A stretch of DNA of 41,514 bases, from the IMG/VR virus record IMGVR_UViG_2690316276_000005; one strand, written 5' to 3'. The notes under the pieces are model-generated. The model was given only the letters and a program-made list of their open reading frames with translations. It was not told the DNA's origin and ran no database searches. Below are positions 1 through 33,593 of the stretch, piece after piece. Within the stretch, counting starts at the first letter, position 1; each line of letters opens with the position of its first letter. This DNA comes from a virus. Taxonomy: Duplodnaviria > Heunggongvirae > Uroviricota > Caudoviricetes. The position numbers were made by a program, and so were the translations under genes.

Positions 1-776
1 ACCTCGGTTTACGAGAACTCGGCACAAGCGGGGAGAAAATACCGTTACTCAGTACAGCGAATACCTGGACTAATCGACAAACATTCAGCGGTGGCCTTTC
101 TGGTGAACTATCCGGCAATGCTTCTACAGCTGCAAAATTAAAAACTGCCAGGAAAATAAGCAATGTGGCTTTTGATGGTTCCTCCGATATCACATTAAAA
201 GCAAGTCATGTTGGTGCGTTTGCCTTAGGGAAAACAGGAAGCACCGTTGCGAATGATAAAGCAGTTGGATGGAACTGGAGTAGCGGAGCCTATAACGCAA
301 CTATTAGTGGTGCATCAACGTTAATTATTCATTTTTATATGGGAGAAGGAAGTTGTCCTGCAGCTCAGTTTCGGATTAATTATAAAAATGGCGGTATTTT
401 TTATCGTTCAGCCCGTGATGGTTATGGTTTTGAAGCCGACTGGTCCGAATTTTACACCACCAGAAAACCTTCAGCAGGAGATGTTGGTGCACTGCCGTTA
501 TCTGGTGGTCAACTGAATGGTGCACTGGGTATCGGAACATCCAGTGCTCTTGGCGGTAATTCGATTGTATTGGGTGATAATGACACGGGCTTTAAACAAA
601 AAGGCGATGGTAATCTGGATGTTTATGCTAATAACGTCCATGTTATGCGCTTTGTCTCCGGAAGCATTCAAAGTAATAAAACCATAAATATTACGGGACG
701 TGTTAATCCCTCGGATTACGGTAACTTTGATTCCCGCTATGTGAGAGATGTCAGACTTGGCACACGAGTTGTTTAG
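1..776 (+). CDS. Tail-fibre protein, C-terminal variable region (partial; reading frame is open from the window edge, GTG at 165 is only the ORF-caller start)
   Basis: Frame 0 is open from position 3; translation ...NASTAAKLKTARKISNVAFDGSS... then [18 protein letters not shown], matching the P2 H / lambda Stf C-terminal family. Ends at in-frame TAG 774-776; homology continues in the same frame to 926. Confidence 0.8.
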   Translation, partial: LGLRELGTSGEKIPLLSTANTWTNRQTFSGGLSGELSGNASTAAKLKTARKISNVAFDGSSDITLKASHVGAFALGKTGSTVANDKAVGWNWSSGAYNATISGASTLIIHFYMGEGSCPAAQFRINYKNGGIFYRSARDGYGFEADWSEFYTTRKPSAGDVGALPLSGGQLNGALGIGTSSALGGNSIVLGDNDTGFKQKGDGNLDVYANNVHVMRFVSGSIQSNKTINITGRVNPSDYGNFDSRYVRDVRLGTRVV

Positions 777-9483: not shown

Positions 9484-12400
9484 TCAGCTGATACTGATGC
9501 CTGCGGTGGCTTTCTTCATCACCACAACCAGCAAATCGCTGATACTTGCTGTGGGATACCAGTTATTCACCAGCCATGCTGACACCGAAAACTCCAGCGT
9601 CATGTGGCCGCGACCAGCTGGCATATCAATAACACCACTGTAAATCAGCGTATTATCCAGCGCGGTACGGTTATAAATTTCAGCACCGTTTTTCCGTACT
9701 ATCAGGCGGCATGACGAATAAATATCGTTATTCTCCCGCTCATGTTTAGCGCCGCTGAATGCCACCGCCGGAATAACAATTTGCCTGTCAAAAGGCTGAT
9801 CGTCATAAATCCTGACGGTAATGGTCCCTGATGGCCACCGCTCCGGTGCCCGGGAGTCCCGCGGAAAAGCCTTACCCACTGTTTTGACTATATCGCCTTC
9901 AATCTGGTTGGCTGACAGTTTCCCCTTAATCTGACAGTTCTCATTAATTGTGACATTGTTGAGCGTCCCGGCGTTCGCATTCACACTGCCACTGATATCT
10001 GCATTTTTAGCGGTCAGTTTTCCGTCCGGTGTCAGGGAAAATGCCGGAGGATTACCGCCGCTGGTAATGGTGGGAGCCGTCAGGCGTTTCAGGAACACGT
10101 CGTTCATGAATATCTGATCGCCCTGACCAACAAACATCGGCTTTGTGTTGCCATTCGCAGGATTAATCATCGCAATCCTGTCTGCCGCCAGCAGCACCTG
10201 ACTCTGCATTCCTGCTGGCGTATTCTCAATACCGGCACCGATACCCGCAATATAAAGGCGTCCGTCCTTCATCTGTTGCAGCTTCACAGCCCACATGCTG
10301 TTCAGATTATTATTTGTATCAACCTGAACCTTCTGTATCTGCTGGATTGCCGCACTCTGGTCTTTCAGTTTCTTATTGACAGTCTGCGTGATTTCATTGC
10401 TGACATCCGTAATGGACGTCCTGATTTCAGCCAGGTCAGGCGCAAGCTGACCGTTATCAATCTGCGTCCACAGCTCCTGAGCCAGATGTGTTTTCCCTAT
10501 CTCTCCTTTGAAAAAATCCAAGTAACCTTCCGCATCATCGCTCGCCCGACCGACAGCCTCCACGAATGCCGATTTGCCAACGGTGTTCACACTGCGAACG
10601 TAAAAATAATAATCATGGCCCGGTTTGATATTGATACTGGCGGCTATCCAGTACAGCGCCGTGCCAAGATAGCGTGCTGTGGTTTCAACCTGCCTGATAT
10701 CCGCAATCCGCTTTTCCGAGAACCAGAACTCAAACTGTACCGTCGGGTCATAAACGGCAAGATGCGGCGTTGCGGTTATCTGAAAATAGCCCGGCGTCAG
10801 CTCAATCCGCGACAGCGCTGCCGGTGCGGCAATCCGGAACGATACCGACGCCGGATCGCCCTGCTGCCCCCACGCATTTACTGCCCGGACTGTCAGCCTG
10901 TAGTTCCCCAGCGCCAGTTGTGTGAAGCGGTAAGTGGTTTCCGTCGTCCGGGCCGTGCTGACCAGCCGCTCACTGCCGTCATCCGCTGTTACGGTCAGAC
11001 GGAGCAGGAAGCTCACGCCCTTCACCACCTTCGGCGTGTCCCAGCGCGCCAGCACCTGATATTCCCCGCTGTCTGCGGTGACTTCGGCAGTCAGGTGCTG
11101 CACCGCTGGCGGCGTGACACCATTCACCGTGCCGCTCTGGTCGCCGTCAAAGTGCGCCCCGTTATCCACGATGGCTTCTTTTTCCGGCACATGCTGCACG
11201 GCGGTGATGGCATACGTGCCGTCGTCGTTCTCACGGATACTCACGCAGCGGAACAATCGCTGGTGCAGCGTCGGCAGCTTCAGCCCCCACACGCTGTATT
11301 CAGCAACACCGTCAGGAACACGGCTCACTTTTACCTTCACGCCGTCGGTGACGGACTGGACCTCCACGCTGACCGGATTCCCCTGCCCGTCAACCAGGCT
11401 TATCAGCGTGGTGCCGGAGGATGGCAGCGTGATTTCACGGTCGAGCGTCAGCGTCCGGGTCTGGCTGTTCACCGCCAGCACGCGCCCGCCGGTGCGGATA
11501 CCGGCATAGTCATCATCGCAGATTTCAATGACATCGCCCGGTACATGACGAAGCCCTTCAGCACCCACGCTGAAATCCACGGTCTGCGTCTCCAGCAGTT
11601 CCGTTTTAATCAGCCACAGCCCGGCGCGGTGTGCCTGCCCCCGGCTGGTACAGCCAAAGGCATCCATCTTCGTGACGTTACGACCGTAACGGACAATGGC
11701 CTGCGTATCCTCCACAAGCTCTGTCGCCGTCTCCCAGCCGTTATCCGGGTCAATCCAGTTCACCTCAACGGCATTATGGCGGTCTTTCAGGGCGCTGAAA
11801 CTGTAGCGGAACGGCGCGCCATCATCCGGCATCACCACATTACTGCGGTTATAGGCCCACACCTTATCCGACTGTCGGTCCTGCACGAACGTCAGCGTCT
11901 GCCCGTTCCATACCGGCATACAGCGCATCGCCGAGCAGAAATCACTGAGCACATCCCACGCCTTGCGCTGTGTGGTCAGCCAGGCATTACAGGTGATGCG
12001 CGGCTCCGTGCTGCCAAAGCCGTCCGGCACCGACTGGTCACAGTACTGGCCGATGACATACAGCGCCCATTTATCCACATCTGCCGCACCAAGACGTTTC
12101 CCCATGCCATAGCGCGGATGGGTCAGCATATCCCACAGACACCAGGCCATGTTGTTGCTGTATGCCGGTTTTAACGTTCCGTCCCAGATACCGCTGTATT
12201 GCCGCGTCTGCGGATTATAGTTCGACGGCACCTGCAGAATGCGCCCGCGAAGATGATAATTACGGCTCACCTGCTGGCTGCCGAACTGCTCCGAATCCAC
12301 CTGTACGCCGACCAGTGCCGTGTTCGGGTAGCACTGTTTCACATCGATGATTTCGGTGTATGACGACCAGAGCGTTTTGTTCTGCAGCTGGTCTGTGGTG

Positions 12401-26860: not shown

Positions 26861-27906
26861 TGAGCAGAAAAAATAAAAAAGTGCGCATGAGTTCACGCAT
26901 TGATCTCGCTGATGCGCTCAGGAAAGAATCGTCGCTCAGTGCATTCACATTTGATGGTCCTTACCGCCTGACCGGGCATGACCTGCTGGACAATATGTAC
27001 TGTGCTGATAACGGGCGGTGGTATGAAACCCCGGTGGACTGGTACGGTCTGGCAAGAGCTGCCCGGCAAACGTCCTGGCATCAGTCTGCGCTTTACTTTA
27101 AGCGCAATGTATTGCTCGGCTGCTATATTCCGCACCCGCTGCTTTCCCGGCAGGATTTCTCGGCGCTGGCGCTGGACTGGTTTGTGTTCGGTAACGCATT
27201 CCTTGAGCTTCGGAGCAATATGCTCGGCGAACCGCTTAAATTACGGCACGCCCTGGCGAAATACATGCGACGCGGAAGCGATCTTGAATCATGGTGGTAT
27301 GTGCAGGATGGCAAGGATGCGTTTCAGTTTCGTCCTGGCAAAGTGTGCCACCTGATGAATCCGGATATTAACCAGGAAATCTACGGCATGCCGGAATATC
27401 TTGGCGCATTACTCTCGGCCAGCCTTTCTCATTCGGCGGACATGTTCAGAAAACTGTACTACGACAACGGATCCCACGCCGGGTGCATCATCTACATCGG
27501 TGCAGCGCAGGTAAACCGCGAAAGCATGGACTCCCTGAAAGAAACGCTACAGGGGGCACGTGGTGGTGGTGCGTTTAAAAACGTGCTCATTCATGCGCCC
27601 AACGGGGGCAAAGAGGGGGTGCAAATTTTGCCGTTCCAGCAGATCACCGCAAAGGATGAGTTCATGAATGTTAAGGCGGCATCCCGTGATGATGTGCTGG
27701 CTGCGCACCGCGTTCCGCCGCAACTGATGGGGGCGATGCCGGGCGAAAAAAGTGCGTTTGGTGATGTGGAGAAGGCCGCGCGGGTTTACGCAATTAACGA
27801 GCTGATGCCCGTCATGGAGGCCATGAAGCACATCAATGACTGGCTTGGCGAAGAGGTGATCCGCTTTAACCCTTACGCACTGTTAGACACCCAGCCCACA
27901 TCCTGA
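26860..27906 (+). CDS. Portal vertex protein (P2 gpQ-like)
   Basis: 348 aa; ...FVFGNAFLE...PDINQEIYGMPEYLGALLSASL...AHRVPPQLMG...FGDVEKAARVYAINELMP...; start overlaps P stop (ATGA). Confidence 0.85.
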   Translation: MSRKNKKVRMSSRIDLADALRKESSLSAFTFDGPYRLTGHDLLDNMYCADNGRWYETPVDWYGLARAARQTSWHQSALYFKRNVLLGCYIPHPLLSRQDFSALALDWFVFGNAFLELRSNMLGEPLKLRHALAKYMRRGSDLESWWYVQDGKDAFQFRPGKVCHLMNPDINQEIYGMPEYLGALLSASLSHSADMFRKLYYDNGSHAGCIIYIGAAQVNRESMDSLKETLQGARGGGAFKNVLIHAPNGGKEGVQILPFQQITAKDEFMNVKAASRDDVLAAHRVPPQLMGAMPGEKSAFGDVEKAARVYAINELMPVMEAMKHINDWLGEEVIRFNPYALLDTQPTS

Positions 27907-27933
27907 CGCGCTTCGCTTGTCTGCTGCTTCGCC

Positions 27934-27956
27934 GGGGCATAAAAAATTTATGCCCC
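27934..27956. terminator. Strong hairpin just downstream of the portal gene
   Basis: GGGGCATAAA-AAA-TTTATGCCCC: 10-bp perfect stem flanked by A/T. Confidence 0.5.
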
Positions 27957-28397
27957 GACTCTCCAGCTCCTGTATCAGTCAGATAATTTCACGACGCTTT
28001 CCTGCTGATTGCCATCATCGACAGTCAGACTCTTACGCAATCCCACCTCGTTGACTGCATATTCTCGCCGTCTCAGTGCGATTTTGACGGCCTTACCTTT
28101 CACCCCATCAAATCAAAAGCCCTCACGTCTTTTTCACGCTCAGCGTGAGAAATACAGCCATTCTGTTGTATCTCTGCGACATCGTTCAGGGAATGCTATT
28201 TACCCCCTGAAACGCGGGCTGTTCCCCCGTCACCTGCGCGCAGAAAAAACGCGTTTTTTTGTGCATGCACGGATCCTTGACGGATCCAGCCGCCACGCGG
28301 GCCGGAAGGGCAAAAAGTCGTTCAAAAAAATTGTGCAAATTTGTGCACTATTGTGCATTTATAAAATCAACTAAAAAACACCTAGTGTGACTTACCT

Positions 28398-28583
28398 CTA
28401 CCACTCGATCGGCACGTAGTCATTAAGTTCCGGAGACCAATTGCACTTTTCACATCTGTGTTTTCCATTCTGGCAGATACATAAACGATAACGGCCACAA
28501 TGCGGGCACCCATTTTCACCATTATCATAATCACCGAGCGACCATTCCTGCATAAGCAGCTCTTCTTCATCATCATTTAGCAT
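28398..28583 (-). CDS. Small Cys-rich (zinc-ribbon-like) protein, function unknown
   Basis: 61 aa with CPHCGRYRLCICQNGKHRCEKC; last gene of a co-oriented cluster between replication gene A and portal Q; GC visibly below the flanking structural genes. Confidence 0.5.
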   Translation of the reverse strand: MLNDDEEELLMQEWSLGDYDNGENGCPHCGRYRLCICQNGKHRCEKCNWSPELNDYVPIEW

Positions 28584-28597
28584 TAATCCCCCTTGAG

Positions 28598-28837
28598 CTA
28601 TTTACTCTTCTCGGCCCTCAAAATCATACGAGAACCATCATCCAGCTCCCAATTAATTTCACCGCCTTCTGCCATGACTAGATGCCAAACGAGTTGAGCG
28701 GCCTCGTTGGTTACATCGCGACCGCGATCATTTCCTACGCGGCGTTTTGTTCCGTCTCCTAAGTCACGCATTTTTGCCAATACGATGGTTTTTGATAGCG
28801 GTGAAAAACCAAGCTGTAGTCGTGCTGAATTACTCAC
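28598..28837 (-). CDS. Hypothetical protein (79 aa)
   Basis: Start overlaps the stop of the upstream 174-aa ORF by 4 nt (operon-like coupling). Confidence 0.45.
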   Translation of the reverse strand: MSNSARLQLGFSPLSKTIVLAKMRDLGDGTKRRVGNDRGRDVTNEAAQLVWHLVMAEGGEINWELDDGSRMILRAEKSK

Positions 28838-29358
28838 TGGCTGCCCCCTTTGTACTGTGTTAACTCTTCCTGCTCCTGCATCATGCGATTGACCTGAACG
28901 CGTGTGCGTCGAACGGCAAAATTAAATTGAAACATGAGCCGGAACATTTCTGATGCTTCCGTGTGAGCATCACGGATAGGTGACAGGCGGTACAGTTCTG
29001 CCTCCGTAGCTTGTTGAATCAATGACAGATCAAATTGAAGTGCGGGTCTGGTACATTTTGCACATCTGGCAGCAAGCTCCGGTATTAGTCTCTTAACGAA
29101 GGTGTTTTGCACCGCTTTGTTGATTTGTGTCTGCATCCAAATCGCAAATTTCAGCGAACGCATAAGTTTGATAGCCTCGGGCAGCGGCAGATAGATCATG
29201 CTGGTAGATTTGGGTGGTTGGTGAACCATCTTCACGGATACGCGATTTCGCAGCGTTCGGAAAATCGTGTTCCCAACAACAGCTTCTACGGATACAGGAC
29301 AGGGAGCCAGACCAGCCCGCAGTGCTTCTTTCATTAGCATGTATTCGTATTTTTTCAT
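28834..29358 (-). CDS. Hypothetical protein (174 aa)
   Basis: Uninterrupted ORF, first of three coupled small genes; no family recognised by eye. Confidence 0.5.
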   Translation of the reverse strand: MKKYEYMLMKEALRAGLAPCPVSVEAVVGNTIFRTLRNRVSVKMVHQPPKSTSMIYLPLPEAIKLMRSLKFAIWMQTQINKAVQNTFVKRLIPELAARCAKCTRPALQFDLSLIQQATEAELYRLSPIRDAHTEASEMFRLMFQFNFAVRRTRVQVNRMMQEQEELTQYKGGSQ

Positions 29359-29418
29359 CGTGTTTTCCTCGTGCGGGGCGACAGTGCACCCCGATAAAAT
29401 TAAAAGCCGTCAAATTCG

Positions 29419-29730
29419 TCATTCAGGAAATAATGCCCGGATATTCCCTGCTATCTGACTGGTTATCTGTGCGGTTGGTACTGGCTGTGGCACGGGGCGT
29501 TCTGTCCTGGTTTGTGTCACCGATAACGCCTCATCGTCAGCCCATGCAGCCAGTCGGTAAGCCTCTGCTGGATTCATTTTCAGAAGTGCCAGCCCGGCCA
29601 GAAAAGCCACGCGTTGGCCGCTTTTGCGGGCTTCTGGTGTAAGGCTGCCCAGCCAGGCGCATGCTTCGCTTTCGTTCTTGACGGCCGCAGGCTTCAGATA
29701 GAAACTTATCCGTCTGGTTGGTGTCGTCAT
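29419..29730 (-). CDS. ParR-like ribbon-helix-helix DNA-binding protein (putative adaptor of the ParM-like ATPase)
   Basis: Starts 5 bp after the parM-like stop; about 103 aa; RRISFYLKP...ESEACAWLGSLT...RVAFLAGLALL resembles the R1 ParR N-terminal RHH pattern as recalled. Confidence 0.5.
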   Translation of the reverse strand: MTTPTRRISFYLKPAAVKNESEACAWLGSLTPEARKSGQRVAFLAGLALLKMNPAEAYRLAAWADDEALSVTQTRTERPVPQPVPTAQITSQIAGNIRALFPE

Positions 29731-29734
29731 TGGT

Positions 29735-30694
29735 TTACTCCTTGTCCATTGCGTACAGCCCATTAACCAGAGCAAACTGTGGCACCCCGTCCGCGATGAA
29801 AGTCGCATTAACTCCGCAGGCTTCGCGGATAGCGGGTGCCACAATCTCCGCCCCTCCACCGACAACCATCACCCGCCCGTAACCCGAAAAACCCGCCAGC
29901 GCGCGGATCACGCGTTGTTTCAGTGTTTCTTCCTTTTCACGAATAACCGCCATCAGGCTGGCGTAATGCGCGTCATTGTGGATGTGCTGGCGCAGCCAGG
30001 CTTCATCATGGCGATGTTCGATAATGGTATTGGCGATGTGGTGACTGGTGCGCATACCGTTAGTGGCCATCACCGACAGTACGGCATCGGCCATCAGAGA
30101 AACGCCTACGTGTGGATCGCAAAACACCTGGCTGATACCTGCCAGTTGCCCCTGAACCTTTGCCACATCCAGCGTGGTTCCGCCCAAATCCACAATCAGC
30201 AGGGATTCAAACGGACTCATGTCAGCCAGTGCCTTAAAGCCAGCCGGAATGGATTCAGGCATAACCCGCACGTTACGGATAGTGAATGCTTCGCCGTTCT
30301 GGTACTCCACCGGGCGCATAACGTTCGCTTTTTTGCGGTTGATGTTGGCCATGTCCGGCTGTGCGTTTGTGTCGAAATACTCGCTCAGTGGCAGGGTGAC
30401 AACCACATCCACCTCCTGTGGCGTGATGCCTGATTTGACCAGCGCGTGATGAATGGCAATGACATTTACATCGCTGTACTGGTATTGCGTGTCGGTTGTC
30501 TGGACAAAGCGATCGCTGACCGGATCAAAACCATAGCGCACGCCATCAAGCATGTAGTTCGCGGGCTGCATGCCACCGAACGGCGCAGACCATTCCGACT
30601 TGAAGCTGTTCGGGCTGATGGCGTTGCGGCGTTCGCCGTTCTCAGTCCATGCCAGCTTGATGTTGGTGGAGCCGTCGTCGATACAAATTTTCAT
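29735..30694 (-). CDS. ParM/StbA-like actin-fold ATPase
   Basis: [35 protein letters not shown]... parallels R1 ParM [21 protein letters not shown]...ISPNSFKREW; also ...[13 protein letters not shown]... and ...[12 protein letters not shown]... phosphate/adenosine motifs. Confidence 0.85.
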   Translation of the reverse strand: [319 protein letters not shown]

Positions 30695-30723
30695 GTCGCT
30701 TTTCCTTATGTTGATTAATTAAT

Positions 30724-30839
30724 CGTTTACGGGATTCTGAAATCCCGTTTTTGCCTGTTTTGTGCGCGCTTCATATATCGCTGCGCGTTTTTTGCTCATT
30801 TACGGGATTCGTGAGTCCCGTTTCTGTCTGTTTTTTGTT
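30724..30839. repeat. Two direct repeats of about 40 bp, each containing a palindrome (ACGGGATT-N4-AATCCCGT); candidate parC-like centromere or origin
   Basis: Repeat 1 at 30724-30764 (palindrome 30729-30748); repeat 2 at 30797-30839 (palindrome 30802-30821, one arm mismatch). Directly upstream of the parM-like start and overlapping the 3' end of gene A. Confidence 0.5.
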
Positions 30840-33593
30840 TCCACTGGTCAGGCCACCCCGCAGCAGGTCTGCTTTGCGGCGGGCGCGTTCAGTGGTTTCA
30901 CTGATTCTCTGTGCGTGCTCTGCGTCGCGGATGGCGCGCAGCATGTCAGAAAGCACGGTAACGGGTGTTTTCATGGTGTTCTGGTCCTGCTGAAGTGTGG
31001 ATGCCAGGCGTGCGGCGGCTTCAGGGTCTGATGCCCCCAGCTGTGTCAGATAGCTGGCGACCGGGTTATGGCGGATCTCCGTGCTGCTTACGCCATGATT
31101 ACGGCTCAGGCGCTGCCAGAGCTGCGTGATTCGGCTGTCCGGGCGGGTATCCGGTTTGCGTACAATTTCAAATCCCTGCGGTGCAATGATGCTGCCGTCA
31201 ACGTACAGACTGCCGCCCCGTAACAGGTGCTGCATCTGTTGTTCACCGATATGCAGGCCGAGAGATTCAGCAGACTCCCGCCATTCTTTAGCGAGTAATT
31301 CGTGGTTATCAGGCAAAGGCCGCTGCTGTTTGCGGCTCTGTGTCCAGCTCTGCATTTCATCACTGCTGTTTTTTGCCTGTTTGTCACGAAGCGAACGCAT
31401 CAGCGCCCGGCGTTCGTGCCGTTTCAGTGAGCGCATCCATTCATCCACATCAACGCCGTCAGGGAGCTGCGGCCACGGTGCTGGCCGTTCTTCCGGCTGT
31501 TCTGTCCCGTTGTTGTCCGTTTCCTGTACACGGGGACAGTTATTGCCACGAGTCCAAGGGGCGGCAGGGCCGCCCTGAAGGTCAAAACCATTTTCGCGGG
31601 CGCTGTCTTCCGCTTCCGGTTTGCGTCTTACCAGCTTCCAGTTATCCGGATGCGTGCACACACGGGAGGATTCCCCGATGAGTGGTGACCAGATCCCGTA
31701 AATCTGTACGCTCTGTTCGCCGTAATCGTTCAGCTCATCGGCGAGGTCGTAGGCGGTGCGAATCAGGTAGTCTTTGCGTGGAACAAGTACGCCGCCCTGT
31801 TTCTCTATGTAGGTGGCAAAACATCCGGCATCAGCGGCGGCAAGAACCGCATCCATTGCGTCATCCTTCAGCCGTTGCGGGCCTTCCGGGTTGCGTGCCA
31901 TCTGGCTGGCAAGGCGGCGCAGTTCACGCCATACCTGGCGGGAGGGGATGCCAAAGAACTGGAACTGGCGGACCCGGTGAAGGCGCGCCCAGCCGATGGC
32001 GCGTTCCACGCTCTCGGCCATTGATTTTCCGGTTTCGTGGTCAACGCGTGGCTTGCCCGTTTTCGGGTCGATGCCATCCACGGCGCGGCTGTCCAGGTTT
32101 TTCCCGATGTAGGTGGCGATGTAGCTGGTTGGCGTGCCTTTTGAGCCGTCTACATACTCCGCCTTAAAGCGCGGAGTTATGTCATCGCCCAGCTCGTGAC
32201 GATCTTCCTGAATGGCAATATCGCGGGTGTGGGACACAATGGTGTCGATTTCTTCCGGATGAGCAAAGACCATCATATGCCAGTGCACGGTGCCGTCATG
32301 GTGAGGCTCCGCCGTGCGGATGCCATACCAGCGCAGGCCGTCGCGGTTCAGTTTTTTGCGGACCGTCGCAAAAAACGTGTTAACCAGGTAATCGCTGGAG
32401 TCGCGCATTGTGGCCCCGTTCCATTTGGGATTCGGATGACCGTTCTCCGTTGTGGCGTGGTATTTTGACGGGCAGGTGACAGTCAGAAACACCGCTTTGT
32501 CGCCACGGGCTTCGGCCAGAAGTTCCAGCCCCTTCATGGTGGCCATCATTTCTGCCTTACGGTGAACCGGGTTACTTACTCCCGCGTAATACACCGTCTC
32601 GAGATCAATCGTGAACCCGTCTTCATTTTCCAGCATGAAACTTTTCAGGAAATCGCGTGTTTTCTCGCGCTGTGCGCGAAACTCGCTTAACGCGTCCTGG
32701 CTCAGATAGGGCGATGTTTTTCTGGAAACCAGACAGGCGGCGCGAAGTTGTTCTTCTCTCCACTCGCAACGTAACAGCCACAGTTTGCGTTTCCACCATT
32801 CCGCACAGGTCAGGCGAAGGATTGCGCCCGGCAGCAGTTCTGTGTCCGGTTCGTGCCTCCGGTCTTTGTCTGTTGTCAGTGCGTCATAATGCGGAGGCAT
32901 GGCGTGTAAGTGTAACGCCATGCGGGCCAGCATCTGATACGCCTTCAGCGTTACATCCATGGTCAGCTCGCCATCAGTCGCGCCAAAACCATCGCAGAGT
33001 TTTTCGAAGGTGCTGCTGAACATCGCCGCCGTCATGGTGGCCAGCGTCTGTATCTGGTGTTTGTTGAGTTGCGGCAGGTAAAGCAAATCGTCCAGGCGTT
33101 CACGTCCGGCAAGGGAGCGATAACCCGGTGTCAGCCAGTGTCCGTCAGTGCGATCCAGACGTTCGAATATTTTGCGCAGGGTTCCGCGTGCATAGCGTTC
33201 CGCCTGCCAGCTCTTTTTGCCTTTCCGGCGATCGGCTTCCTGTTTTTTGCGCAGGAAGGAGAGGTGGCGAATAAGCGGATCGCGCAGATAGGACGGCAGC
33301 AGGCGCAGCGAGGCCATGGCTTCATCCACCGCGCCGCGTGCCTGTTTTCTGGCGTCTCCTGCCAGTGTGATGGTTTTGTCCTGTTTTTCCTGTGCGTCCA
33401 GGCTTTTATTAATCAGGTTGCCCAGTGGCGTGGCGGAGAACGCCGCATCAGCCATTTCCTGGCGGCGCTCGTTCTCTGCCCGGTGGGCATCCAGCCAGGA
33501 GGAAAGCGCGGATTCAGGAGCGGGGATCCCCGTTCCTTCACGCCCCACTGCGTGGCGCGGTTGTTGCCAGTCCCTGATGTACTCTGCCGTCAT
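30771..33593 (-). CDS. Replication initiation endonuclease (P2 gpA-like, rolling-circle HUH family)
   Basis: 940 aa; ...DGTVHWHMMVF... (HUH-type motif) and ...TPTSYIATYIGKN... (active-site Tyr region); position between the early genes and the cos-proximal accessory region. Confidence 0.8.
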   Translation of the reverse strand: MTAEYIRDWQQPRHAVGREGTGIPAPESALSSWLDAHRAENERRQEMADAAFSATPLGNLINKSLDAQEKQDKTITLAGDARKQARGAVDEAMASLRLLPSYLRDPLIRHLSFLRKKQEADRRKGKKSWQAERYARGTLRKIFERLDRTDGHWLTPGYRSLAGRERLDDLLYLPQLNKHQIQTLATMTAAMFSSTFEKLCDGFGATDGELTMDVTLKAYQMLARMALHLHAMPPHYDALTTDKDRRHEPDTELLPGAILRLTCAEWWKRKLWLLRCEWREEQLRAACLVSRKTSPYLSQDALSEFRAQREKTRDFLKSFMLENEDGFTIDLETVYYAGVSNPVHRKAEMMATMKGLELLAEARGDKAVFLTVTCPSKYHATTENGHPNPKWNGATMRDSSDYLVNTFFATVRKKLNRDGLRWYGIRTAEPHHDGTVHWHMMVFAHPEEIDTIVSHTRDIAIQEDRHELGDDITPRFKAEYVDGSKGTPTSYIATYIGKNLDSRAVDGIDPKTGKPRVDHETGKSMAESVERAIGWARLHRVRQFQFFGIPSRQVWRELRRLASQMARNPEGPQRLKDDAMDAVLAAADAGCFATYIEKQGGVLVPRKDYLIRTAYDLADELNDYGEQSVQIYGIWSPLIGESSRVCTHPDNWKLVRRKPEAEDSARENGFDLQGGPAAPWTRGNNCPRVQETDNNGTEQPEERPAPWPQLPDGVDVDEWMRSLKRHERRALMRSLRDKQAKNSSDEMQSWTQSRKQQRPLPDNHELLAKEWRESAESLGLHIGEQQMQHLLRGGSLYVDGSIIAPQGFEIVRKPDTRPDSRITQLWQRLSRNHGVSSTEIRHNPVASYLTQLGASDPEAAARLASTLQQDQNTMKTPVTVLSDMLRAIRDAEHAQRISETTERARRKADLLRGGLTSGNKKQTETGLTNPVNEQKTRSDI

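Follow-up and report, generated by a model that had tools for sequence, protein, structure and literature searches.

Palindrome-bearing direct repeats upstream of parM in a P88-like prophage: a putative ParR-binding cis site of a type II partition cassette

The stretch of DNA analysed here, referred to as the window, is 41,514 nucleotides in length and represents a P88-like prophage (Xuanwuvirus, Peduoviridae) of the P2 family. Gene A, a pair of direct repeats, parM and parR lie within it in that order, all on the minus strand. Gene A (30771..33593, minus strand) encodes a P2-type replication endonuclease of 940 aa, identified by the Pfam domain Phage_GPA (E 6.6e-131) and sharing 30% identity with the A protein of P2. 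Downstream of it lie parM (29735..30694, minus strand), encoding an actin-like segregation ATPase of 319 aa, and parR (29419..29730, minus strand), encoding a centromere-binding adaptor of 103 aa. The parM leader (30695..30722, minus strand) holds a conserved ATTAATCAA block and an AAGGA Shine-Dalgarno sequence. The extent of the ParMRC cassette is approximately 29419–30840, with gene A forming context outside of it and only the 3′ end of A overlapping the element described below.

The window ParM was found to contain a StbA_N domain (E 2.7e-82) and a ParM C-terminal domain (E 1.3e-68) and belongs to PHROG 691, "partition protein". Structures of R1 ParM match it over its full length, residues 2–316 (1MWK, E 8.5e-93; 4A62, E ~1e-92), and its identity to the sampled plasmid ParMs reaches at most ~53%, being ~47% to the R1 type. 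ParR was identified by PF10784 (E 3.2e-23), by PHROG 2515 and by the RefSeq annotation of the same ORF in relatives. In an alignment of plasmid and phage ParRs its N-terminal segment RRISFYLKP falls opposite the N-terminal strand region of R1/StbB-family proteins, and its C-terminal LFPE tail is conserved, a tail of the form (N)xxxLFP(E/D) being common to plasmid ParRs. Relatives of R1/StbB-family ParR are described as ribbon-helix-helix dimers. A search of the ParR sequence against the PDB gave no match, and a single-sequence AlphaFold model (pLDDT 53) was too poor for judging the ribbon-helix-helix fold. To judge from the matches listed here, the neighbours of the repeats are a genuine ParM and a genuine ParR. 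ParM and a partition protein are already annotated in public records of P88-like phages, and the record of phage-plasmid D6 notes similarity to "phage P88 StbA". The literature searched gave no account of a cis site, of ParR binding to such a site or of a role for phage-borne ParMR.

The region 29300–31100 matches 14 phage records with 95–99% identity, including phage P88, Citrobacter phage phiSM and Xuanwuvirus P884B11. It was also matched in 1375 of 5426 complete E. coli genomes, in which 1544 of the 1546 places of this stretch are chromosomal and two are on plasmids. Homology among P88-like phages starts at the parR stop codon, and the DNA beyond it, toward the portal gene, is variable cargo. 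Within the window this cargo (27917–29418, parR to portal, at the position of P2 tin/old) encodes a 174-aa protein of unknown function, a DUF7446 protein and a 61-aa zinc-ribbon protein. Cargo at three related loci (L001, 3000–3500; L174, 5450–6900; L176, 5411–6757) was a ClpX-type zinc-finger gene, hicAB or a KAP NTPase. PADLOC gave zero matches for the parMR pair and the neighbouring cargo, including the three cargo proteins of the window, and an anti-phage defence role for parMR and the cargo was rejected on this result.

Two records with unusual labels should also be noted. The first (NZ_CP148288.1), submitted as a circular "plasmid" from an E. coli isolate, is a complete P88-like genome of 34,461 bp in which integrase, cox, A, parM and parR are present along with every structural gene. 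Phage DNA that had been excised or was replicating could account for this record, as could episomal carriage. The second (NZ_JBQPOM010000071.1, labelled Vagococcus sp. WN89Y) is a 226-kb contig with a ParM that is 98% identical to that of the window, and its placement in a Gram-positive Vagococcus looks like assembly contamination or mislabelling.

A repeat search of the window recovered one direct-repeat family at this locus, with two 42-nt copies (30723–30764 and 30796–30837) that are 81% identical and start 73 nt apart. This agrees with an earlier note on this DNA, which had described two palindrome-bearing direct repeats of about 40 bp between A and the parM start, the second lying over the last codons of A. 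Common to both copies is the palindrome ACGGGATT-N4-AATCCCGT. Copy 1 (30723..30764, minus strand), the putative proximal ParR site, has a perfect palindrome at 30729–30748 (ACGGGATT CTGA AATCCCGT) with 8-bp arms and a 4-nt centre, preceded on the parM sense strand by an A-rich flank; its core GGG begins 52 nt upstream of the parM ATG. Copy 2 (30796..30837, minus strand), the putative distal ParR site, has its palindrome at 30802–30821 (ACGGGATT CGTG AGTCCCGT), and the single arm mismatch remarked on previously is real in the window but proved to be a minority allele among relatives. Because the stop codon of A is at 30771–30773 and parM starts at 30694, copy 1 falls in the 76-bp gap between A and parM and copy 2 in the 3′ end of A, within the last ~22 codons (roughly codons −8 to −22 before the stop). 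The spacer between the repeat units (30765..30795, minus strand) holds the A stop codon and is the most variable part of the region. The two palindromes are 53 bp apart and, with one 20-bp palindrome in each 42-nt repeat, provide four half-sites in total. An 11-bp sub-repeat (AAAACAGG / AAAACGGG) was also seen in the A-rich flank and is suggestive only.

Further copies of the palindrome, for which the earlier note had proposed a search, were looked for across the whole 41.5-kb window, and ACGGGATTNNNNAATCCCGT with up to three mismatches occurs at these two places only. By shuffling, 0.10 matches would be expected by chance, and one of 100 shuffles reached two. Autocorrelation of the repeat region gave a peak at a lag of 73 only, the spacing of AAAC being irregular.

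Conservation was first considered inside the P88 group, using approximately 136 related IMG/VR loci from two scans, one anchored on the palindrome and the other on the N-terminus of parM. The latter is unbiased toward the repeats because its anchor lies in parM and not in the repeats themselves. Site counts were made on the 118 loci with enough upstream sequence. The proximal repeat was present in all 118, and both sites were kept in 115, the spacing between them being 73 bp in 109 loci, 72 bp in three and 74 bp in three. Copy 2 is a perfect palindrome in most relatives, reading ACGGGATT CACA AATCCCGT on the parM sense strand. There is free variation at the 4-nt centres, with TCAG or TAAA found in copy 1 and CACA or CACG in copy 2; the CGGGATT/AATCCCG arms are rarely altered, and then by single transitions only. 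Mean nucleotide diversity was 0.034 for the CGGGA/TCCCG cores, 0.10–0.24 for the palindrome centres, 0.083 for the inter-repeat spacer and 0.071 for third codon positions of parM, these figures being approximate since the alignment carries some indel noise from mosaic A alleles. The extra conservation of the arms is modest, about twofold below synonymous-site diversity and over few columns, and is consistent with constraint but not decisive.

To look beyond this group, intermediate relatives were taken from a protein search and inspection of the contigs, a scan of genome contigs with ParM having given only three near-identical loci. The protein search found ParM homologues of 54–63% identity, and every one of these with readable upstream context sits in a P2-like prophage with the gene order gpA (at times with an extra ORF), parM, parR, cargo and portal. 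Identity to the window ParM was 63% in Plesiomonas, 62% in Hafnia, 58% in Serratia and 54% in Enterobacter. The intergenic DNA of Hafnia and Plesiomonas is not alignable with that of the window, yet each has two sites of the form GGGW-N6-WAWCCC. Those of Plesiomonas (distal GGGACAACAAAAACCC, proximal GGGACAACACTAACCC) are spaced by 72 bp with GGG at −131 and −59 from the parM ATG, and those of Hafnia (distal GGGATTGAGGAAACCC, proximal GGGTTCATTAAATCCC) are spaced by 73 bp with GGG at −128 and −55. The equivalent values for the window (distal GGGACTCACGAATCCC, proximal GGGATTTCAGAATCCC) are 73 bp, −125 and −52. On the parM sense strand this relaxed motif occurs at these two places only within the ~5–15-kb loci of the two-site lineages. 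In the window it gives four strand matches against 0.37 expected, three of the four being the two repeat sites, numbers which are descriptive because the motif was defined after the data had been seen. The remaining match (695–710, plus strand, GGGACGTGTTAATCCC) lies far from the par locus and may be due to chance.

In Plesiomonas the distal site overlaps the end of A, in Hafnia it falls within an unrelated ORF of 167 aa, and at a P88-like locus with a different upstream region (L050, see below) it is intergenic. On this comparison, the conserved feature of the distal site is its position relative to parM and not its coding context. The ParRs of Hafnia and Plesiomonas share the segment RR(I/V)SFYL with the window ParR. 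The earlier note had held that a lack of conservation in related elements would speak against its proposal; the repeats are kept, both in the P88-like loci and in Hafnia and Plesiomonas, and this two-site geometry, maintained across distant lineages, appears to be the strongest evidence that the repeats serve as a cis site of the cassette. The ATTAATCAA block was also found ~20–25 nt upstream of the parM start (window, 30700–30722; L171, 3965–3985; L173, 3969–3985). Together with the ribosome-binding site it is a leader feature common to the P88-like, Hafnia and Plesiomonas loci despite diverged surroundings, and it may represent a −10 region or another protein site.

The Serratia/Enterobacter branch (ParM 54–59% identical), examined at seven loci (L174, L176, L177, L179, L181, L187 and L190), counts against a reading of the repeats as a cis site of parMR, since its layout is different. 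It has 20-bp units in inverted arrangement and shares only the AAAACGGGA part with the sites described above. About 140 nt upstream of parM, a unit of ~20 bp (GGGAACGAnAnAGAAAAATG) and an inverted partner ~26–30 bp away flank a short G+C-rich palindrome, and a conserved TTTAAACGGC...TTTCAT block follows. An (ACAGG)CAAAAACGGGA block is common to this branch and copy 1 of the window.

Loci at which the upstream gene differs show what the repeats are inherited with. At L050 (6460–7000) the upstream region consists of a different gpA allele of 773 aa and an unknown ORF of 159 aa, and at L070 (1–830) other small ORFs take its place. Identity to the window starts 10–20 nt upstream of the distal palindrome at both loci and runs through parMR. 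With the start of homology placed shortly before the distal repeat at loci that differ in their upstream gene, the two repeats are inherited as part of the parMR module and not with gene A. At a further locus, L024, homology starts at the proximal repeat. At L169 (~10170–10320) there is a single hybrid copy, 73 bp having been lost and the last gpA residues rewritten; by its sequence, this copy would be exactly the product expected from recombination between the two repeats.

Such junctions could also be taken to mean that the second copy is a non-functional duplication or a recombination scar, as the homology breakpoints coincide with the repeat edges at L024, L050 and L070 and recombination between copies accounts for the 73 bp missing from L169. 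This is highly improbable, however, with two copies at a fixed spacing in all but three of the 118 P88-like loci and again in Hafnia and Plesiomonas, where the flanks are fully diverged, and with a distal copy whose palindrome, despite its location in coding sequence, is perfect in the majority of relatives.

The mosaic loci bear equally on whether the repeats form all or part of a P2-family origin recognised by the A protein. The earlier note had allowed for a centromere, an origin or both, and the origins of P2 and 186 lie inside the 3′ part of A (confirmed for P2 by its record), the distal repeat overlapping the A end. The origin part of that proposal was not supported. The P2 record (NC_001895) places the rep_origin nick site at 29892, inside A, and in a protein alignment this site corresponds to residues ~676–686 of the window A. 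The P2 rep_origin feature, the protein alignment and a DNA comparison place the predicted nick region, the counterpart of P2 ori, at 31540..31575 (minus strand). The DNA of the nick region (GCCGCGCCTCGG|AGTCCTGTCAATAACTGT in P2 versus GCCGCCCCTTGG|ACTCGTGGCAATAACTGT in the window, ~31575–31540) is conserved far beyond the 30% identity of the A proteins, and 31540–31575 is likely to be the replication origin of the prophage. The origin candidate thus lies ~730 bp from the repeats, and no A-protein nick-site sequence is carried by the repeats themselves, its counterpart, sought by alignment with P2, having been found inside A. Moreover, replacement of the A allele (L050) or the presence of other ORFs ahead of the repeats (L070, Hafnia) does not separate them from parMR. 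The window and P2 share phage family and neighbourhood, but such repeats are absent from P2, in which orf91 directly follows the end of A. The repeats were rejected as a P2-type origin on the mapping of the P2 ori to A, and this explanation is considered barely tenable.

Another explanation for palindromes of this kind is that they are intrinsic terminators or RNA stem-loops, acting on the plus strand as a stop for antisense transcription or, in the sense RNA, as stabilising or processing hairpins between A and parM. With a simple scan both appeared terminator-like on the plus strand, having 8-bp stems with four G-C pairs and tails of TTTTTGCCTG and TTCTGTCTGT, and the T-rich run after each hairpin on that strand means that antisense transcription into A could be stopped there. 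The predicted stems have energies of −10 to −13 kcal/mol, with z-scores of −1.8 to −2.6. However, only minus-strand genes are present from 28398 to beyond 33965, and the closest gene on the plus strand is that for the portal, with its end at 27906, at a distance of 2.8 kb. On the minus strand, which is the one transcribed, AAAC or AAAT and not a U-run comes after the stems. The sites of Plesiomonas (CGGGACAACAAAAACCCG) and Hafnia leave a possible stem of only 3–4 bp with loops of 8–10 nt and no T-run, and the distal Plesiomonas site on the plus-equivalent strand folds no better than shuffled sequences (z −0.47); the outer blocks and the 72–73-bp spacing are nevertheless kept in both lineages. 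Double compensatory changes were absent among relatives, the arm changes being single transitions, and these substitutions are themselves uninformative on RNA pairing because in every case a G-U pair is retained on one of the two strands. Strand logic, together with the loss of hairpin and T-run in Hafnia and Plesiomonas, led to the rejection of a terminator or RNA hairpin, which is regarded as very unlikely.

A sigma-70 consensus scan of the region, including the spacer at 30765–30795, detected no promoter. The best position-weight promoter score was 1.8 in the P88-like sequence and 8.5 in Hafnia, and above 10 in the parC regions of the R1 type and pOXA-48. In Hafnia the proximal site is overlapped by a promoter of moderate score (TTCATT-18-TATATT), with TTCAGA-16-ATTAAT at the homologous P88 positions, and on this basis a weak ParR-controlled promoter is possible in the P88-like sequence. 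It is equally plausible that parMR is transcribed by read-through from A in an early operon, with cox, A, parM and parR being co-oriented in one complete relative.

The question of promoters leads to the possibility that the sites act in transcription alone, as operators for ParR or for some other regulator of the phage, with no role as a centromere, and that ParMR has been repurposed, for example for positioning of replication or assembly sites or for manipulation of the host. The prophage is integrated in nearly all genomes, so that plasmid-style partition seems unnecessary, and two sites are far fewer than in known centromeres of the R1 family. Chromosomal ParMR systems with roles other than segregation have also been reported (bioRxiv 10.1101/2025.06.27.661541, PMC12270681). 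On the other hand, the P88-like sequence is without a good promoter on which to operate, the C-terminal tail of ParR is kept and ParM is full-length, matching R1 ParM at E 1e-92. That the 73-bp, same-face spacing is kept even where the distal site is in coding DNA would be expected of an architectural complex more than of a simple operator. A purely transcriptional role is considered unlikely.

The repeats are therefore best described as a putative ParR-binding cis site, acting as centromere and/or operator, of a ParMRC cassette, and this reading is held to be probable. Their position upstream of parM is the canonical position of R1 parC (PMC2241845). The parC-like part of the earlier proposal stands on this position, on the genuine ParM and ParR, on joint inheritance with parMR and on the two-site layout of distant relatives; its reference to iterons needs qualifying, because the element consists of two palindromic sites and not of an array of 11-bp direct repeats. 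The locus as a whole would represent a type II partition locus whose centromere is minimal and of atypical architecture.

It is proposed that ParR binds each of the 20-bp palindromes. The conserved core GGGA-N8-TCCC and its A-rich flanks make two dimers per palindrome probable, one for each half-site. As 73 bp corresponds to approximately seven helical turns, both sites would be on the same face of the DNA, and this could allow a folded ParR-DNA complex comparable to the U-shaped complex of R1 parC and ParR. The C-terminal tail of ParR would then couple the complex to growing ParM filaments, by which circular phage genomes could be moved or separated. As the proximal site lies at the place where a weak promoter would have its −35 region, ParR may also dampen expression of parMR, or else transcription of parMR may be no more than read-through from the early (cox...A) operon. 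A reasonable supposition, by analogy with the AlpAC system of the CGP3 prophage discussed below, is that the system acts on circular phage genomes as they replicate or before they integrate. The scenario in full, in which an integrating P2-like phage carries a minimal ParMRC with two palindromic ParR sites seven turns apart, expresses it from the tail of the early operon and uses it to move or separate monomeric circular genomes in lytic replication or prior to integration and not for plasmid upkeep, is put forward tentatively, as something possible that falls short of probable.

The analysis defines a compact and portable parC-parM-parR module of ~1.4 kb and marks the boundary between a conserved replication/partition block and the variable cargo beside the portal gene. 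Should the centromere consist of the two palindromes, the parC would be unusually small and well delimited, with four half-sites at a fixed spacing of 73 bp, and would be well suited to determining the number of ParR dimers required to engage or cap a ParM filament. It also sharpens the question of why a plasmid-type segregation system is carried by a chromosomally integrating phage of 1375 of 5426 E. coli genomes.

Among the known systems, a close comparison is with parC of plasmid R1, a site of 159 bp with two sets of five 11-bp direct iterons, each iteron bound by one ParR dimer, and with 39 bp between the sets that hold the par promoter, the whole folding into a U shape (PMC2241845). Both elements lie directly upstream of parM-parR genes of the same families (R1 ParM; R1 ParR/StbB, PF10784) and both are bipartite, with two ParR-binding regions (putative in the window) separated by 39 bp in R1 and 53 bp in the window. 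They differ in that the window has two 20-bp palindromes in 42-bp repeats instead of an array of 11-bp iterons, in that the strong promoter of the R1 spacer has no convincing sigma-70 counterpart in the window and in that the distal site of the window falls inside a replication gene, at its 3′ end. ParR of the R1 type has 116–117 aa compared to 103 aa in the window. No iteron array with a period of 10–11 bp was found in the window region by autocorrelation, and a hidden R1-like array was rejected, the only peak being that at lag 73.

The loci of the R1 type (L131), the pOXA-48 type, IncI, IncFIA, Arsenophonus and D6 all have short direct iterons upstream of parM. The ParMR (StbA/StbB) pairs of phage-plasmid D6 and of the IncL (pOXA-48-type), IncI and IncFIA plasmids are homologous to that of the window, with 47–53% ParM identity and repeats upstream of parM, and the two repeat clusters of the pOXA-48 type are likewise 73 bp apart. 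Their iterons (of TCTCA type in D6; CTGTATTTTT in pOXA-48) do not, however, form GGGA...TCCC palindromes, and these systems reside on autonomously replicating plasmids or plasmid prophages.

A prophage system that bears comparison is AlpA/AlpC/alpS of the Corynebacterium glutamicum prophage CGP3. It is described as likewise pairing an actin-like filament former with a DNA-binding adaptor for specific phage sites in an integrated prophage, although the host phylum and the type of phage are different. AlpAC is reported as needed for efficient viral DNA replication and transport (PMC4446434, PMC5539076). It provides a precedent, in functional terms, for an integrating phage with a ParMRC-like system, and the cassette described here would, if the proposed reading is true, be its Gram-negative counterpart, carried by roughly one in four complete E. 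coli genomes.
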